Of a stretch of 44,850 nucleotides of DNA, positions 1,749-15,304 are shown one piece after another. The translations under genes and the position numbers were made by a program. The first letter of the stretch is position 1, and each line of letters opens with the position of its first letter. Location: the sequence record OP434518. One strand, given 5' to 3'. The notes under the pieces were generated by a model. The model was not told the origin of the DNA. It did not search any database and saw only the letters and a list, made by a program, of their open reading frames with translations. The DNA is from Escherichia phage phi458.

Positions 1749-1967
1749 TCACAGTCCCCATTGTTTGTTCTTAAGTTCGATCTCCTCCTGGCAACTTGCA
1801 CAAGTCCGACAACCCTGAACGGCCAGGCGTCTTCGTTCATCTATCGGATCGCCACACTCACAACAATGAGTGGCAGATATAGCCTGGTGGTTCAGACGAC
1901 GCATTTTTATTGCTGTATTGCGCTGTAATTCTTCGATTTCTGATGCTGAATCAATGATGTCTGCCAT
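1749..1967 (-). CDS. TraR/DksA-family C4 zinc-finger protein
   Basis: 72 aa with CCECGDPIDERRR...CRTCASC, a four-cysteine spacing typical of phage TraR-like proteins. Confidence 0.6.
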   Translation of the reverse strand: MADIIDSASEIEELQRNTAIKMRRLNHQAISATHCCECGDPIDERRRLAVQGCRTCASCQEEIELKNKQWGL

Positions 1968-2281
1968 CTTCCATTAATCTCTGAATTGTTGGTTAATACG
2001 CTTGAGGGTGAATGCGAATAATAAAAAAGGAGCCTGTAGCTCCCTGATGATTTTGCTTTTCATGTTCATCGCTCCTTAAAGATGCCGTTTAACATGCCGA
2101 TCGCCAGGCTTAAATGAGTCGGTGTGAATCCCTCAGCGTTACCGTTTCGCGGTGCTTCTTCAGTACGCTACGGCAAATGTTATTGATGCTCCTGTCTGGT
2201 GACAGCCTTCGGGCTTGTATTATGTATAAGTTCTGATAAAAGCCTCCGATATATTAAATTTAAATAACGAAATTCATCTTC

Positions 2282-2920
2282 TTGATAAGTTGTGATAGCA
2301 TCATTAAAAGTTTCAGTTCGTTGAGCAGGGATTACATGGTAAATCAGCAACAGCAACAGCAACAGATTAACGAAAATCTAAAAATTGAGGCAATCCGTTG
2401 GTATCAGAAGCTGCAGGAGATTACTTATCTTGAAGCAGGACAACACATGCGGGCTTTAAATCAGCTCATGTGGCAAATCCCTAGTTTCGTAATTGCTGTC
2501 AATGGTGGGTTGTGGTATGCAACAACACTGGCAAATGAAAGTTCCCTATGGATTATCTTTGCAGTGTTAGCATTGTTTGATTTCACAACAATGATTACAC
2601 TTTATCGCTTAAGGTCTTTAATTGGTTCGAAAATAGCACTACAAAAAAACATTGAAGACCCTTCAAAAAACTATATTTTAAATGAAATTACTAGAGACGC
2701 TGGATTTAAATTGCCCTCTAGCTATGATAATAAGGAAACTGGTTACATAGTAGTGTCGTGCTGGGCAATAATGCTTATTGTTTGCTTCTTTGTTAATATT
2801 GCTGGGGTATGTCATCCAAACTTGTTTTCAAAAGACATTTCACATAATACATACAAAGCAACAATTAAAAATATTGAGTCAGGATTATTTATCGAAGCAA
2901 AATCAGGATTATCAAAGTGA
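2282..2920 (+). CDS. Hypothetical integral membrane protein with poly-Gln tract (start may be ATG 2336)
   Basis: Three hydrophobic helices (IPSFVIAVNGGLWYATTL, LWIIFAVLALFDFTTMITL, YIVVSCWAIMLIVCFFVNIAGV); visibly AT-rich; stop overlaps the next gene's start. Confidence 0.6.
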   Translation: MISCDSIIKSFSSLSRDYMVNQQQQQQQINENLKIEAIRWYQKLQEITYLEAGQHMRALNQLMWQIPSFVIAVNGGLWYATTLANESSLWIIFAVLALFDFTTMITLYRLRSLIGSKIALQKNIEDPSKNYILNEITRDAGFKLPSSYDNKETGYIVVSCWAIMLIVCFFVNIAGVCHPNLFSKDISHNTYKATIKNIESGLFIEAKSGLSK

Positions 2921-3519
2921 CTTCGTGGAAGTTTTATGACAATAATGCTGATCGCTTATTTGCCGATTATATATCACTTGATTTTTACTCTATCTTTCAG
3001 GATGTTGAAGAGTTTATTTTACAATCTAAGGGTGTCTCTTTGGATGTCGGTTCAGGTTCCGGCCGTGATGCTGCTGCGTTAGATGAATTAGGTTATAAAG
3101 TAATAGCTGTTGAACCAAGTGAAAAGATGCGAAATTTGGCATCTTCATATTATAAATCTAACCATATTATATGGTTAGATGATTCATTGCCTTTTCTTCA
3201 TAGTGTTAAAGCAATGAATCTAAAGTTCGACCTTATTTTAGTCAGTGCTGTATGGATGCATCTTTCAAAAAAAGAGCAAAAAATCTCACTAGAGACGCTA
3301 ACTGATCTTTTAACATTGAATGGGAGAATGATAATTACATTGCGCTTGGGACCTCCCGAACCAGATAGAAACATTAACGTTGTTAATACTGAGGAACTTC
3401 TTGAGTTAGCGTCTCAGTTAGGTCTGAAAACATTGCGAGTTACGTCAATAAATAAAGATAGTTTTCAACGTAACCAGATAACTTGGCAGAAAGTTGTATT
3501 ATCAAAAAATAATGAGTAA
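2917..3519 (+). CDS. Class I SAM-dependent methyltransferase (GTG start, GTGA overlap with upstream ORF)
   Basis: Motif I LDVGSGSGRDA followed by an acidic residue after a beta-strand (VIAVEPS); 200 aa; AT-rich codon usage like the upstream membrane gene. Confidence 0.65.
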   Translation: MTSWKFYDNNADRLFADYISLDFYSIFQDVEEFILQSKGVSLDVGSGSGRDAAALDELGYKVIAVEPSEKMRNLASSYYKSNHIIWLDDSLPFLHSVKAMNLKFDLILVSAVWMHLSKKEQKISLETLTDLLTLNGRMIITLRLGPPEPDRNINVVNTEELLELASQLGLKTLRVTSINKDSFQRNQITWQKVVLSKNNE

Positions 3520-3530
3520 ATAACTTAGTA

Positions 3531-4775
3531 TTATTCGCACAGACCGTAGCGTGAAGAGCAAACCTCTATATCGAGACTTGCTTTTACAAGATCGTAGACC
3601 TTGCCACCGCGCCCTGTTTTTGCCCACTCTACGACTTCATAAACACCCGGAGAATTAAGATCTCCACGAGGACCATAAAATCCTGACCAGTCGATGTGTT
3701 GCACATCAGGTTTTAGCCCAAAAAGTTGAATATTTCGACCAAGTGGCAGATTGAACTGTTTCATCCAGCGTTGGCTTATCTCTCCTACGCTCATCCAGTG
3801 TACCCATCTACTAGCAAGGCGTACCTTCAACTCCCATTGTTTGTGCTTTTTGATGTGCTCTGGCCAGCGCGCAGCCGTCTCTGCAATTTCCTCTTTGTTG
3901 CATAGCACGCAATTCATGCAGCCAACACGAGACGCACCTTGCATATAAAGTGGATTTGGCTTAATTCCGAAATATTTGTGAACTGCGAATACGTCCTCAG
4001 CCGTCCATTTGTGGAGCGGCAGGAAGTTGTAGAGAAAATCGGCGTCGCGCATATCGCGGGAAAACCTCTCATATCCAGCGCGCTTAGAGGACTCATCCGC
4101 GCGAACACCAGACCATTGTACGATAACATCGCCAGCATCAAGGAGCGGCTTTATGGCTGCGTCGAAAGCTATCTGAATTTTCAGTTCGTCTGTACAGAAT
4201 CGGTCGCGCAGCATAGGGAACTTGCCATGCAGAAGGGAGCAATCCAAAAAGCTATTACCGGATGGGTGCATAACGGAAAGCGCAGCATCAAGAGCAGTTT
4301 CGAACTCAATTCCCCAGCGTTCTGCTGTGCGCTTCCAGGCTTGCCCGAATTTGGTGTCAGAACGTGCGAGGGAAGGCATGACTATGCCACGGTATGCTCC
4401 CATGCGGATCATCTGTCGTTTAGACCAGTTTTTTTGCAGATAAATTCGTCGTTTGGCAAAATCTTCTTCAGTGTAAATCCGCTTCACAACCTGCACAGGG
4501 CTACAACCGATCTGCTCATGAATGCTCCTGGCGAATTCGACAGTTAGATTATGCTCATTATCCGTGTCTGCCATAACAGCATGTACCTGTTTGCCGAATA
4601 ATGTGTGCGCCACTGCGAGTGTGGCAGTGCTGTCTTTTCCTGCTGAATAATTCACGATTATCTTATGATCATTAGGGATGCGAAATTCATTTATATATCT
4701 GTTGTAGGACTCTTCTATTTCGCGAATTTTCTTGCTGATGTCTGTTGGGACAATAATTATTGCTGCCTCGTTCAT
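3531..4775 (-). CDS. PAPS-reductase/DndC-family PP-loop ATP pyrophosphatase-like protein
   Basis: PP-loop-like NYSAGKDST near the N-terminus; Cys cluster CMNCVLC; 414 aa; in the pL operon where lambda carries orf61/ea8.5/ea22. Confidence 0.6.
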   Translation of the reverse strand: MNEAAIIIVPTDISKKIREIEESYNRYINEFRIPNDHKIIVNYSAGKDSTATLAVAHTLFGKQVHAVMADTDNEHNLTVEFARSIHEQIGCSPVQVVKRIYTEEDFAKRRIYLQKNWSKRQMIRMGAYRGIVMPSLARSDTKFGQAWKRTAERWGIEFETALDAALSVMHPSGNSFLDCSLLHGKFPMLRDRFCTDELKIQIAFDAAIKPLLDAGDVIVQWSGVRADESSKRAGYERFSRDMRDADFLYNFLPLHKWTAEDVFAVHKYFGIKPNPLYMQGASRVGCMNCVLCNKEEIAETAARWPEHIKKHKQWELKVRLASRWVHWMSVGEISQRWMKQFNLPLGRNIQLFGLKPDVQHIDWSGFYGPRGDLNSPGVYEVVEWAKTGRGGKVYDLVKASLDIEVCSSRYGLCE

Positions 4776-4936
4776 ACCGCCTCCCGTTTATTATTTATCT
4801 CCTCAGCCAGCCGCTGTGCTTTCAGGGGATTTCGGATAACAGAAAGGCCGGGAAATACCCAGCCTCGCTTTGTAACGGAGTAGACGAAAGTGATCGTGCC
4901 TACCCGGATATTATCGTGAGGATGCTTCATCGCCAT
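4772..4936 (-). CDS. Small early-left ORF (lambda orf60a-like), 54 aa
   Basis: Hand translation [13 protein letters not shown]...[11 protein letters not shown]; start overlaps the exo stop and stop overlaps the next start (ATGA); not in the ORF track because it is under 60 aa. Confidence 0.45.
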
Positions 4937-5607
4937 TGCTCCCCAAATGCAAAACCAATTTCAGCCAGTGCCTCGTCCATTTTTTCGATGAACTCCGGCA
5001 CCATCTCGTCAAAACTCGCCATGTAATTTTCATCCCGCTCAACCACGACATAATGCAGGCCTTCACGCTTCATTCGTGGGTCATAGTTGGCAAAGTACCA
5101 GGCATCTTTTCGCGTCACCCACATGCTGTACTGCACCTGGGCCATGTAAGCCGACTTTATGGCCTCGAAACCACCGAGCCGGAATTTCATGAAATCCCGG
5201 GAGGTAAACGGGCATTTCAGTTCAAGGCCGTTGCCGTCACTGCATAAACCATCGGGAGAGCAGGCGGTGCGCATACTTTCGTCGCGATAGATGATCGGGG
5301 ATTCAGTAACATTCACGCCGGAAGTGAACTCAAAGAGGGCTCTGGCGTCGTTCTCGTACTGTTTTCCCCAGGCCAGCGCCTTAGCGTTAACTTCCGGAGC
5401 CACACCGGTGCAAACCTCGGCAAGCAGGGTGTGGAAGTAGGACATTTTCATGTCAGGCCATTTCTTTCCGGAGCGGGGTTTTGCTATCACATTGTGAACT
5501 TCTGAAGCGGTGATGACGCCGAGCCGTAATTTGTGCCACGCATCATCCCCCTGTTCGACAGCTCTCACGTCGATCCCGGTACGCTGCAGGATAATGTCCG
5601 GTGTCAT
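4927..5607 (-). CDS. exo: Lambda exonuclease (Red-alpha)
   Basis: 226 aa, near-identical to lambda Exo as recalled ([26 protein letters not shown]...). Confidence 0.95.
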
Positions 5608-6389
5608 GCAGCCACCTTCTGTTCAGAGGCTTTCTGTTTCAGGAATCCAAGAGCTTTCACTGCTTCGGCCTGTGTCAGTTCTGACGATGCGCGAATGTCG
5701 CGGCGAAATATCTGGGAACAGAGCGGCAATAAGTCGTCATCCCATGTTTTATCCAGGGCGATCAGCAGAGTGTTAATCTCCTGCATGGTTTCATCGTTAA
5801 CCGGAGTGATGTCGCGTTCCGGCTGACGTTCTGCAGTGTATGCGGTATTTTCGACAATGCGCTCGGCTTCATCCTTGTCATAGATACCCGCAAATCCGAA
5901 GGCCAGACGGGCACACTGAATCATGGCTTTATGCCGTAACATCCGTTTGGGATGCGACTGCCACGGTCCGGTGATTTCTCTGCCTTCGCGGGTTTTGAAT
6001 GGTTCGCGGCGGCATTCATCCATCCACTCGGTAACGCAGATCGGATGATTACGGTCCTTGCGGTAAATCCGGCATGTACAGGATTCATTGTCCTGCTCAA
6101 AGTCCATGCCATCAAACTGCTGGTTTTCATTGATGATGCGGGACCAGCCATCAACGCCCACCACCGGAACGATGCCATTCTGCTTATCAGGAAAGGCGTA
6201 AATTTCTTTCGTCCACGGATTAAGGCCGTACTGGTTGGCAACGATCAGTAATGCGATGAACTGCGCATCGCTGGCATCACCTTTAAATGCCGTCTGGCGA
6301 AGAGTGGTGATCAGTTCCTGTGGGTCGACAGAATCCATGCCGACACGTTCAGCCAGCTTCCCAGCCAGCGTTGCGAGTGCTGTACTCAT
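5604..6389 (-). CDS. bet: Red-beta single-strand annealing protein
   Basis: 261 aa matching lambda Bet ([48 protein letters not shown]...). Confidence 0.95.
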
Positions 6390-6394
6390 CCGTT

Positions 6395-6811
6395 TTATAC
6401 CTCTGAATCAATATCAACCTGGTGGTGAGCAATGGTTTCAACCATGTACCGGATGTGTTCTGCCATGCGCTCCTGAAACTCAACATCGTCATCAAACGCA
6501 CGGGTAATGGCTTTTTTGCTGGCCCCGTGGCGTTGCAAATGATCGATGCATAGCGATTCAAACAGGTGCTGGGGCAGGCCTTTTTCCATGTCGTCTGCCA
6601 GTTCTGCCTCTTTCTCTTCACGGGCGATCTGCTGGTAGTGACGCGCCCAGCTCTGAGCCTCAAGACGATCCTGAATGTAATAAGCGTTCATGGCTGAACT
6701 CCTGAAATAGCTGTGAAAATATCGTCCGCGAAATGCCGGGCTGATTAGGAAAACAGGGAAGGGGGGTAGTGAATGCTTTTGCTTGATCTCAGTTTCAGTA
6801 TTAATATCCAT
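6395..6811 (-). CDS. gam: Gam, RecBCD inhibitor
   Basis: 138 aa matching lambda Gam ([15 protein letters not shown]...). Confidence 0.95.
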
Positions 6812-7114: not shown

Positions 7115-7483
7115 TCAGGCGGCTTTGATAGTCATATCATCTGGATCAAATATTCCTGATGTATCGATATCGGTAATTCTTATTCCTTCGCTACCATCCA
7201 TTGGAGGCCATCCTTCCTGACCATTTCCATCATTCCAGTCGAACTCACACACAACACCATATGCATTTAAGTCGCTTGAAATTGCTATAAGCAGAGCATG
7301 TTGCGCCAGCATGATTAATACAGCATTTAATACAGAGCCGTGTTTATTGAGTCGGTATTCAGAGTCTGACCAGAAATTATTAATCTGGTGAAGTTTTTCC
7401 TCTGTCATTACGTCATGGTCGATTTCAATTTCTATTGATGCTTTCCAGTCGTAATCAATGATGTATTTTTTGATGTTTGACAT
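7115..7483 (-). CDS. ea10: Ea10 early-left protein
   Basis: 122 aa matching lambda Ea10 (MSNIKKYIIDYDWKASIEIEIDHDVMTEEKLHQINNFW...). Confidence 0.85.
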   Translation of the reverse strand: MSNIKKYIIDYDWKASIEIEIDHDVMTEEKLHQINNFWSDSEYRLNKHGSVLNAVLIMLAQHALLIAISSDLNAYGVVCEFDWNDGNGQEGWPPMDGSEGIRITDIDTSGIFDPDDMTIKAA

Positions 7484-8783: not shown

Positions 8784-9830
8784 TCACTCTGGTTCGCTGG
8801 GGAATATATTTATCAATTGCCCTGTTGAAATGTGCCCATTTTCTACAACCTCTAGGTATGAAATTTCAACAGTTGATTCTTTGGCTACAGCATTCAAAAA
8901 CTCAAGAAGCTCATCAGTAGATGTTATGTCGGCTGAGGTTTTTATGGTGAAAGATTCACCATTTGAAACCCTTATGACGTCAATATTTATGTCCTGATTT
9001 GTTTCTCCCGAGCGACGAACGCCCGTGACATAAAAGTTATCTCTTCTAGTTTCCTTTTTTCGATCAATTGATTGTCTTTGGTTTAAGGTATTTAACTGTT
9101 CTCTATTTACCACTCTCTGACCAATTGTTACCCTCTCAACTGACGAGTCTTGAGCAAGCTTTTTAAGCAACTTGCTTTTACCATCCTCGCCGTGAGCCAG
9201 AACCTCTCTGCTAATGTTTGTTTGACCGCTAATCAACAACTTGAGCACATTGTCTTGTGCTTCGTTTACCGCTTTGGTGCTTTTTTCCACCAATTGCACC
9301 TGAGAATCTTGGTCATGTCGCTGTGTTTCGTAGTACTCATTGATCCACTTATAGCCTACCGTGCTGGCAGCTAAGACGATAGCGGCGACGGCGCATAGTG
9401 CTTGCCTTCCTGTCATTTTGCCTATCGCTTGAGTAAACACTGTCACCACTCCGTTTACAATCGGATCTGAGTCACCATCCGCTTGGCTTGAGCCTTCGCT
9501 TATTCGGTAGACAATATCCAGCAAACCTTTCTCTGCATCTTTTAGCTTCTGCCGATTATGAGTGCTGTGACTGACTACCGTAAATGCTTTTTGTATTTCA
9601 TGCGTAAGCTCTGCCATACCAAAAAGCATTGACGCAGTCAATGAAGAATTATATCTATTTGGATCGCCTTTTACATTAATATTGATCTTTGGCCATCCAC
9701 TGAAAACTACGTTAGGGAATGTGAAGTCGCTTGAGTCGATATCCTTCCTTCCGAGCATTTCTGTTACAAAAGATACAAAGTCGTCTTCTGACTTGATAAC
9801 ATATTGCGCAGGTTGATCAATCGCTGACAT
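8784..9830 (-). CDS. Unrecognised 348-aa protein with central transmembrane segment, in the rexAB position
   Basis: Starts 25 bp after the cI stop on the same strand with an AAGGA RBS; hydrophobic segment ALCAVAAIVLAASTVGYKWI mid-protein; charged, coiled-coil-like C-terminal half; no family recognised. Confidence 0.75.
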   Translation of the reverse strand: MSAIDQPAQYVIKSEDDFVSFVTEMLGRKDIDSSDFTFPNVVFSGWPKININVKGDPNRYNSSLTASMLFGMAELTHEIQKAFTVVSHSTHNRQKLKDAEKGLLDIVYRISEGSSQADGDSDPIVNGVVTVFTQAIGKMTGRQALCAVAAIVLAASTVGYKWINEYYETQRHDQDSQVQLVEKSTKAVNEAQDNVLKLLISGQTNISREVLAHGEDGKSKLLKKLAQDSSVERVTIGQRVVNREQLNTLNQRQSIDRKKETRRDNFYVTGVRRSGETNQDINIDVIRVSNGESFTIKTSADITSTDELLEFLNAVAKESTVEISYLEVVENGHISTGQLINIFPSEPE

Positions 9831-14032: not shown

Positions 14033-14636
14033 ACCAGCGCGAAGACGATGTAAAAACGATGAATGTCGGGAATGGTTTCACCCTGCATTCGCCAATCAGT
14101 GGTGGTGCTCTCCAGAGTGTGGAACCAAGATAGCACTCGAACGACGAAGCAAAGAACGCGAAAAAGCGGAAAAGGCAGCAGAGAAGAAACGACGACGAGA
14201 GGAGCAGAAACAGAAAGATAAACTTAAGATTCGAAAACTCGCCTTAAAGCCCCGCAGTTACTGGATTAAACAAGCCCAACAAGCCGTAAATGCCTTCATC
14301 AGAGAAAGAGACCGCGACTTACCATGTATCTCGTGCGGAACGCTCACGTCTGCTCAGTGGGATGCCGGGCATTACCGGACAACTGCTGCGGCGCCTCAAC
14401 TCCGATTTGATGAACGCAATATTCACAAGCAATGCGTGGTGTGCAACCAGCACAAAAGCGGAAATCTCGTTCCGTATCGCGTCGAACTGATTAACCGCAT
14501 CGGGCAGGAAGCAGTAGACGAAATCGAATCAAACCATAACCGCCATCGCTGGACTGTCGAAGAGTGCAGGGCCATCAAGGCGGAGTATCAACAGAAACTT
14601 AAAAAACTGCGAAACAGCAGAAGTGAGGCTGCATGA
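14025..14636 (+). CDS. ninG: NinG (Rap-like recombination endonuclease)
   Basis: 203 aa matching lambda NinG. Confidence 0.9.
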
Positions 14637-15304
14637 ATATCTACGAAAGAATTGATGGCAGCAAATACCGAAATATTTGGGTAGTTGGCGATCTGCACGG
14701 ATGCTACACGAACCTGATGAACAAACTGGATACGATTGGATTCGACAACAAAAAAGACCTGCTTATCTCGGTGGGCGATTTGGTTGATCGTGGTGCAGAG
14801 AACGTTGAATGCCTGGAATTAATCACATTCCCCTGGTTCAGAGCTGTACGTGGAAACCATGAGCAAATGATGATTGATGGCTTATCAGAGCGTGGAAACG
14901 TTAATCACTGGCTGCTTAATGGCGGTGGCTGGTTCTTTAATCTCGATTACGACAAAGAAATTCTGGCTAAAGCTCTTGCCCATAAAGCAGAAGAACTTCC
15001 GTTAATCATCGAACTGGTGAGTAAAGGTAAAAAATATGTCATCTGCCACGCCGATTATCCTTGTGACGAATACAAATTTGGAAAGCCAGTTGATCATCAG
15101 CAGGTAATCTGGAACCGCGAACGAATCAGCAACTCACAAGACGGGATCGTTAAAGAAATTAAAGGCGCGGACACGTTTATCTTTGGTCATACGCCAGCAG
15201 TGAAACCACTCAAATTTGCCAACCAGATGTATATCGATACTGGGGCAGTGTTCTGCGGAAATCTCACATTGATTCAGGTACAGGGAGAAGGCGCGTGGGC
15301 ATAA
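14633..15304 (+). CDS. ninI: NinI Ser/Thr protein phosphatase
   Basis: Metallophosphatase motifs GDLHG, GDLVDRG, GNHE; matches lambda orf221. ninH is absent. Confidence 0.9.

Follow-up and report, generated by a model that had tools for sequence, protein, structure and literature searches.

A PAPS-reductase-fold PP-loop gene in the early-left operon of Escherichia phage phi458, and its possible role in the modification of phage DNA

Background

Genes named "PAPS reductase" (PAPS, phosphoadenosine phosphosulfate) are widespread in temperate phages, and they are routinely mislabelled as sulfur-metabolism genes. We describe here one such gene, encoding a PP-loop protein of 414 amino acids (aa), in Escherichia phage phi458 (sequence record OP434518; the whole stretch of DNA that was analysed, 44,850 nucleotides long, is called "the window" below), and we compare it with the described systems that it most resembles. 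Among these, DndC and SspD require ATPase and DNA-recognition partners (DndD/E and SspB/C). IbrA, which is PAPS-reductase-like, and IbrB, which is ParB-like, are co-activators of prophage gene expression, and CysH is marked by a C-terminal motif, ECGLH, that bears its catalytic Cys. DndC itself is described as a PP-loop ATP pyrophosphatase in which three Cys hold a 4Fe-4S centre and a further Cys dyad probably serves as a sulfur relay (PMC10853773). Three of its cluster residues (Cys146, Cys280 and Cys283) are common to DndC and APS reductase, a further pair (Cys262 and Cys273) is specific to DndC, and the E. coli B7A protein is 540 aa long (PMC12193691). BrxP bears ferredoxin-like and Mog1p/PsbP-like extensions (PMC12839542).

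As regards phages, a sensitive vibriophage gained the capacity to infect a Dnd host after it had received two phage-specific genes, one of which is a PAPS-reductase-Dam fusion (Piel et al., bioRxiv 10.1101/2021.05.05.442762), and a 2026 survey noted that Aca-regulated operons with a putative anti-defence function include PAPS reductases, for which it proposed DNA modification (PMC13551039). The phage family defined by PHROG 424 is already known, the window protein is an added member of it, and a phage genomicist would find the gene unsurprising. It lies, however, in the early operon of a genetically tractable lambda-type prophage of E. coli, where what phage "PAPS reductases" do can be tested. 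An initial annotation, made from the letters of the DNA, had proposed a PP-loop enzyme of the DndC, SspD or IbrA kind that might modify nucleic acid, act against host defences, or form a three-gene modification system with the adjacent methyltransferase and membrane protein.

Results

Judged by profile matches and motifs, the protein is very probably an active PP-loop ATP pyrophosphatase with an Fe-S-type Cys site, and not an enzyme of sulfate assimilation. It passes the Pfam model PF01507 (PAPS_reduct) with 75.5 bits for a cut-off of 22.5 (aa 39-290, covering positions 2-173 of the 175 in the profile, with an insertion of ~80 aa), as the initial annotation had expected of a member of the PP-loop/PAPS-reductase superfamily, and it matches PHROG 424 (phage "PAPS reductase") from end to end (aa 5-413, E 7.2e-66, 224 bits; PHROGs carry no curated cut-off). 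The signature of PHROG 424 and of the wider phage clade, namely a PP-loop of the SGGKDS type together with C194, C286, C289, C406 and C413, is present. By contrast, the curated models of sulfate assimilation all score far below their cut-offs: 35.1 bits against 165.1 for CysH (TIGR00434), 50.8 against 154 for a second CysH model (NF002537), 23.7 against 254.2 for TIGR02057 (CysH group), 47.1 against 235.3 for the Fe-S APS reductase (TIGR02055) and 13.9 against 195 for CysD (NF003587). We therefore reject CysH, CysD and APS reductase as identities for this protein, on these cut-offs and on its motifs.

The more specific part of that annotation fared less well. The DndC equivalog TIGR03183 gives 32.2 bits for a cut-off of 290.4, with a partial match at aa 187-275, and the matches to the defence library PADLOC (SspD, 6e-19; BrxP, 4e-16; DndC, 5.8e-9) are likewise partial and all fall within aa 183-328: that to SspD spans positions 74-211 of the 277 in its profile, and that to BrxP 244-334 of 779, both short of full length. 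Among 48 open reading frames (ORFs) of the window, PADLOC detected no partner genes of Dnd, Ssp or BREX, the only Dnd match being the partial one to DndC, and DUF3440, the domain of IbrA, has no Pfam match in the protein at E up to 0.1. Since the curated cut-offs are missed, DUF3440 is not detected and partners are absent from the ORFs scanned, the protein is not a member of DndC, SspD or IbrA, and membership in BrxP is rejected on the same partial matches and partner scan. Searching the window with tblastn for four ParB-like neighbours of relatives gave no ParB homologue (all E > 0.1), although ParB-like genes, which the initial annotation had suggested looking for, do adjoin several relatives (see below).

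The family to which the protein does belong is large. When 1.84 billion cluster representatives were searched with a profile, 2,927 relatives were recovered at E <= 1e-3, 244 of them at E <= 1e-30, and in IMG/VR 454 matched stretches of viral contigs encode a relative. Most relatives are about 320 aa long; members of the enterobacterial clade exceed them by about 90 aa, with an N-terminal helix and inserts near aa 121-160 and 325-370.

Conservation was measured in an alignment of 126 divergent representatives, about 31-46% identical to the window protein, and in a second alignment of 142 sequences. In the PP-loop, S44, G46, K47, D48 and S49 are conserved in 90-97% of the 126 relatives, whereas position 45, A in the window protein, is G in 90% of them; D70, T71, E74 and K199 are likewise conserved in the two alignments. 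The SAGKDST motif pointed out in the initial annotation is thus real and under strong conservation. Its second motif, CMNCVLC, is also present, and the first two of its Cys residues are conserved, but the third, C292, is kept in few relatives (Table 1), and the annotation had overlooked C194, C406 and C413. The Cys residues of the protein are, in all, C91, C179, C194, C286, C289, C292, C406 and C413, with none between C194 and C286. In sequence alignments GCMNC falls on GCEPC, the cluster-ligand motif of the Fe-S APS reductase 2goy, and by analogy a [4Fe-4S] cluster would most likely be held by Cys194, Cys286 and Cys289. Cys194, from the position of its motif and the published DndC comparison (PMC12193691), would be the equivalent of DndC Cys146 and of the CC motif of APS reductase; the C406/C413 tail may be a persulfide or relay site.

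An AlphaFold2 model computed from the deep alignment of 142 sequences has a predicted local distance difference test (pLDDT) score of 91.9; it supersedes a poor first model from 19 close homologues (pLDDT 66, and <50 at the C-terminus). From the BFVD library of viral folds came only models labelled generically as "PAPS reductase", and their TM-scores were low.

The gene is an ATG-start ORF whose start codon overlaps the stop codon of the DUF1317 gene (ATGA) and is preceded by a GGAGG Shine-Dalgarno sequence, so that it is translationally coupled to the early-left (pL) genes DUF1317-exo-bet-gam. The minus-strand order N - ... - gam - bet - exo - DUF1317 - PP-loop gene is that of the lambda early-left region, and with exo, bet, gam and other early genes on the same strand and N upstream, the gene is a distal member of a delayed-early pL operon of the lambda type, at the position and with the timing that the initial annotation had given it. 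That this is a genuine gene, and not a chance ORF, is clear: the identical protein heads a cluster of 93 members, and homologues at 70-85% identity occur across Enterobacteriaceae with E down to 1e-287. A 3-kb segment with 100% identity is found in E. coli 23CRST001, in a prophage that lies next to fimZ and is integrated at tRNA-Arg; at least 80% of this segment is present in 29 of 5,426 complete E. coli genomes. When window positions 2000-5000 were compared with cultured lambdoid phages, only the flanks matched (14% coverage), and the segment with the PP-loop gene therefore replaces the usual ea/orf region, in agreement with the earlier proposal that it stands in for lambda orf61/ea8.5/ea22. 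A scan of positions 1900-5000 for promoters and terminators did no better than on shuffled sequence and was not used.

The surroundings of relatives were described from 118 loci that encode a homologue in full length, drawn from species-representative genomes, IMG/VR and assemblies. ORFs were called in them by a crude procedure, and the genes around the homologue were grouped into clusters. Dereplicating the loci at 95% identity left 62 groups, whose 120 immediate neighbours were scanned against Pfam, with 112 genes four positions away as a control. The immediate neighbours include gpA replicase (8 of 120), TraR-like proteins (6), class I methyltransferases (5), Dam (D12) (4), MT-A70 (3), a ParB helix-turn-helix domain (2) and DndB (1), none of which is among the families listed for the control; there a single N6_N4 methyltransferase appears (1 of 112), a family not listed for the immediate neighbours. 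Methyltransferases thus make up 12 of the 120 immediate neighbours and one entry among the families listed at four genes away, but as only the 25 commonest families of the control are listed, and single methyltransferase matches may be hidden there, this enrichment is indicative and not a statistic.

Individual loci show the same associations. In prophages of alpha- and beta-proteobacteria, genes for a Dcm-type C5-cytosine DNA methyltransferase or for Dam adjoin distant relatives (31-34% identity). Burkholderia phage phiE125 has the order DNA methyltransferase (gp56) - PP-loop family (gp57) - ParB-like (gp58), and a ParB-like protein 48% identical to phiE125 gp58 is encoded two genes upstream of a Serratia homologue. 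Two relatives are fusions that arose independently of each other. In P0107, from an Aeromonas prophage, MT-A70 is joined to a domain of the PP-loop family (54% identity), beside Nmad5 and DUF4406 genes. In P0125 the N-terminal domain was read by eye as a DNA N6-adenine methyltransferase (NPPF), its only Pfam match being a weak one to Methyltransf_23 below threshold. We considered whether this N-terminal methyltransferase might be a homologue of the class I methyltransferase of the window, which would have been a Rosetta-stone link, and rejected it (BLASTP E 0.81). The early operon of the Aeromonas prophage (L002:4357-8094) encodes in a row a DUF4406 protein (nucleoside deoxyribosyltransferase-like), Nmad5 (a nucleotide-modification-associated domain), a 232-aa protein and P0107, and looks like a larger DNA-modification cassette.

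In phage 186, orf84 (L129:3462-4466; 35% identity) lies in the early pR operon and is translationally coupled to replication gene A, much as the window gene is coupled to its own upstream neighbour; a RefSeq note states that translation through the end of orf84 is apparently needed for translation of replication protein A. The original phage 186 record, U32222, labels the gene only "Orf84".

The slot directly downstream of close homologues is a swap site, filled by MT-A70 (L074-L077), by the class I methyltransferase pair described below in other loci, or by gpA replicase in P2-like prophages. Loci in which this was noted are L120, L074-L077, L007 and L013-L015; in L120 (1063-2202, minus strand) the slot holds a convergent gene of the DndB family (Pfam 3.7e-31).

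In the window this slot holds a pair of plus-strand genes, for a class I S-adenosylmethionine (SAM) methyltransferase that is not recognisable from its sequence as a DNA methyltransferase and for a membrane protein with no Pfam or PADLOC match. The end of the membrane-protein gene overlaps the start codon of the methyltransferase by 4 nucleotides, and methyltransferase and PP-loop gene converge with 11 nucleotides between their stop codons. The pair has a GC content of 35%, compared with 47% for the PP-loop gene, and runs against the surrounding phage genes; being on the plus strand and convergent, it is not part of the pL operon. It accompanies the PP-loop gene, convergent and abutting each time, in 21 of the 118 loci (7 of the 62 groups), and is absent from the other 97 (about 80%); in every case the membrane protein travels with the methyltransferase. 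The trio is found in E. coli, Klebsiella (in the nin region), Enterobacter, Serratia and other lineages, with methyltransferases diverged to 44-71% identity. In a Salmonella defence island (L043-L045), where AbiEii/DUF6088 and an HNH gene are its neighbours, the pair has stayed intact, and convergent to it lies a 3' remnant of a PP-loop gene (5674-5953; aa 290-388, 47-61% identity) in two pieces, suggesting a frameshift, from which we conclude that the composite once existed there and the PP-loop gene was lost. In a Citrobacter prophage (L046-L048) the pair stands alone. In a tree of PP-loop proteins the pair-linked genes are polyphyletic, the divergences of pair and PP-loop gene are uncorrelated, and near-identical PP-loop genes have either the pair or an MT-A70 DNA methyltransferase downstream. 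In our reading the pair is a moron, an autonomous accessory cassette that has entered the prophage with expression signals of its own; its linkage to the PP-loop gene would be long-standing but not obligatory. It is a candidate exclusion or defence pair expressed in the lysogen.

Some other genes of the window are listed with these features in Table 1. Among them is the 348-aa ORF at the position of lambda rexAB, which may be a prophage-expressed defence or exclusion gene.

Table 1. Positions in the window of the PP-loop gene, its motifs and other genes mentioned in the text (motifs are numbered by aa of the PP-loop protein; conservation refers to the 126 relatives)
Feature	Position	Strand	Basis or remarks
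PP-loop gene	3531..4775	minus	ORF calling
PP-loop ATP-binding motif SAGKDST, aa 44-50	4626..4646	minus	Family consensus SGGKDS
Cys194, RFCTxELK motif	4194..4196	minus	100% conserved, as is K199; putative first [4Fe-4S] ligand
C286-M-N-C289-V-L-C292, aa 286-292	3900..3920	minus	C286 100%, C289 98%, C292 21%
C406-x6-C413 and terminal Glu, family-specific C-terminal tail	3537..3560	minus	C406 96%, C413 97%; consensus CxSxYGLCE
DUF1317 gene (lambda orf60a-like)	4772..4936	minus	Pfam DUF1317, 1.9e-33
exo, bet, gam (Red recombination)	4927..6811	minus	ORFs and RefSeq annotation of identical E. coli prophage
Class I SAM methyltransferase (TehB/UbiG-like)	2917..3519	plus	Pfam Methyltransf_11/25/23; GC 34.8%
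194-aa membrane protein	2336..2920	plus	Hydropathy: at least 2 hydrophobic spans; N-terminal poly-Q
ZapA-like pseudogene, frameshifted	about 2066-2250	minus	RefSeq annotation in identical E. coli prophage (L001:8067-8251); between TraR/DksA-like gene and membrane-protein gene
DUF2528 protein	7115-7483	minus	Early-left region; ordinary lambdoid accessory gene
348-aa ORF	8784-9830	minus	Between N and cI-like repressor (lambda rexAB position); no Pfam or PADLOC match
Calcineurin-like Ser/Thr phosphatase (NinI-type)	14633-15304	plus	nin region; ordinary lambdoid accessory gene

Discussion

What this enzyme acts upon is a question on which we can only be tentative. The reading that we favour, without holding it for established, is modification of phage DNA in the early part of the lytic cycle, directed against host defences, the likeliest chemistry being the insertion of sulfur; this reading draws on the fusions, the neighbours, the timing and one experimental precedent. 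The mechanism may be modelled on DndC, SspD, TtuA and [4Fe-4S]-LarE: ATP would adenylate an oxygen on the nucleic-acid substrate and sulfur would then displace the activated group, the sulfur coming from host IscS and being passed on through the C-terminal Cys residues (the flexible Cys406/Cys413 tail) and the free iron of the cluster. Expressed from pL right after induction or infection, together with the Red genes, the enzyme would most likely mark or protect replicating phage DNA, which would make its function one of counter-defence or anti-restriction; phosphorothioate-dependent restriction of the Dnd/Ssp type would be the most obvious target. In some phages the fused or adjoining DNA methyltransferase or ParB-like protein could be a DNA-targeting or activating module, and a ParB-like protein that activates a phage DNA thymine dioxygenase (PMC13229309) offers a precedent for partnerships between ParB-like proteins and phage enzymes that modify DNA. 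A stricter version, in which this single polypeptide would insert sulfur into phage DNA (as a phosphorothioate or a thio-base) requiring no more than ATP, host IscS and an Fe-S cluster and dispensing with DndD/E or SspB/C, seems to us doubtful.

Several observations weigh against a role in DNA modification. DndC and SspD depend on partners of which the window has none, so that DNA phosphorothioation by one polypeptide would be unprecedented. Only about 185-195 of the 414 residues can be superposed on any solved structure, which leaves the substrate-binding parts unmodelled by homology. Neither a DNA methyltransferase nor a ParB gene adjoins the window gene itself. Within two genes of the homologue, the labelled gene clusters include no methyltransferase in about half of the dereplicated loci, and the adjacency seen in the others could be due in part to common residence in hotspots of accessory genes. 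The phage 186 homologue is described in RefSeq as a PAPS reductase of "unknown function; not essential". As for the experimental precedent, the Vibrio protein of Piel et al. can be set beside the subfamily of the window by description only, and the effect seen in that transfer is that of the PAPS domain, the fused Dam domain and the second gene taken together (bioRxiv 10.1101/2021.05.05.442762). Beyond that study, our literature search found no experimental work on a stand-alone phage PAPS reductase and no biochemistry or genetics for this clade; Silas et al. (bioRxiv 10.1101/2023.04.06.535777) do not mention the PP-loop family.

The same fold can of course serve other ends. TtuA, NcsA, TtcA and LarE, which are structurally similar, act on RNA or small molecules, and the phage enzyme might in the same way thiolate or otherwise modify host or phage tRNA, or a small molecule, and so tune translation or metabolism during lytic growth. 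We consider this unlikely in view of the repeated fusion or adjacency of relatives to DNA methyltransferases, ParB/DndB-like proteins and replication initiators, and of an HMM (hidden Markov model) similarity to SspD, BrxP and DndC that exceeds the similarity to tRNA thiolases. A three-gene modification or defence system with the class I methyltransferase and the membrane protein, as raised in the initial annotation, is in our opinion quite unlikely. The linkage is certainly recurrent, since the same convergent, abutting trio is met across lineages and genome positions in spite of the divergence of the methyltransferase, and the alternation of the pair with an MT-A70 DNA methyltransferase beside nearly identical homologues may also be counted in its favour. 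The three genes are not an operon, however: the pair lies on the other strand, shares no promoter with the PP-loop gene and differs from it in GC content, pL transcripts would run antisense through it, it is missing from most loci, it survives beside a decayed PP-loop gene in Salmonella and alone in Citrobacter, and its partners are polyphyletic, with divergences that do not follow its own.

There is still less to be said for the three alternatives that remain. A regulator of prophage or host gene expression of the IbrA/IbrB kind, rather than an enzyme that protects the genome, would account for the ParB-like genes that adjoin homologues in several phages, but with DUF3440 undetected, no ParB homologue found in the window and catalytic residues strictly conserved we think it very unlikely. 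Slightly more improbable in our eyes is a decoy without catalytic activity, which would titrate host IscS or components of Dnd/Ssp: anti-defence decoys are common in phages, and a DndC/SspD-like protein without the partners of DndC and SspD in the window is what one might look for, yet the ATP-binding loop, K199 and the five Cys are near-invariant in relatives as diverged as those aligned here, which is the pattern to be expected from selection on catalysis. Finally, one may take the name "phosphoadenosine phosphosulfate reductase", given by RefSeq and PHROG, at its word and suppose that this is an auxiliary metabolic gene, whose product would be a genuine PAPS or APS reductase and would raise sulfate assimilation. 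CysH and APS reductase are indeed what the protein matches best by sequence in the PDB. We find this barely credible, given the scores on the curated models, the retention of the ATP-type SxGKDS loop where Vibrio vulnificus CysH has SSSFG, an end in YGLCE (...SSRYGLCE) and not in ECGLH, and the limited part of the protein that superposes on known structures.

Even if the enzyme should turn out not to modify DNA, the auxiliary-metabolic-gene annotation of the phage PP-loop family should go. If it modifies DNA unaided, the picture of DNA phosphorothioation would be simplified and the escape of temperate phages from immunity of the Dnd/Ssp type would be explained; if one polypeptide suffices for sulfur insertion, this would be a new route to the sulfur modification of DNA and a general phage counter to modification-dependent immunity. 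The map of residues (PP-loop, C194, C286, C289, C406 and C413), together with the pattern of partners, turns a vague annotation into specific experiments.

Comparison with known systems

DndC is like the window protein in being a PP-loop ATP pyrophosphatase of the PAPS-reductase fold with a C...CxxC arrangement and an additional pair of Cys. The pair lies at the C-terminus in the window protein (C406/C413) and between the cluster ligands in DndC (Cys262 and Cys273), the window protein has no match to the C-terminal, DndD-binding part of the longer DndC, and no DndA, DndD or DndE is encoded among the 48 ORFs scanned. The family thus resembles DndC in mode of action and not in family membership, the suggested equivalence of the Cys residues coming from their C...CxxC pattern. 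SspD and BrxP (from Ssp and BREX type 4) are the best matches in the defence library, over the Cys-bearing half of the protein; DUF4007/SspB, SspC, PglZ and BrxL are absent from the PADLOC results for the window, and neither extension of BrxP was detected by Pfam in the window protein.

With the Fe-S APS reductases (PDB 2goy, 4bwv and 7lhr) the protein shares an alignable CxxC pair. It differs from them in having a single Cys (C194) in place of the CC pair, about 220 extra residues, and an intact ATP-type PP-loop without the ECGLH tail. IbrA is, like the window protein, a PAPS-reductase-fold protein of prophages, and ParB-like genes beside several relatives recall IbrB, but neither DUF3440 in the protein nor a ParB-like gene in the window, which would complete the likeness, was detected. 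The Vibrio PAPS-Dam protein of Piel et al. offers a phage PAPS-reductase domain joined to a DNA adenine methyltransferase, to which P0107 and P0125 are analogous, whereas the window protein stands alone.

The closest relatives in kind are orf84 of phage 186 (CP84), gp57 of phiE125 and the homologues in P2-like prophages. These belong to the same family (31-36% identity over aa 40-414), they have the same PP-loop and the same five Cys, and they occupy the same sort of site in early operons, beside replication or recombination genes; where the PHROG 424 relatives precede gpA or are flanked by a DNA methyltransferase and ParB, the gene of phi458 is found in the pL operon of a lambdoid phage.

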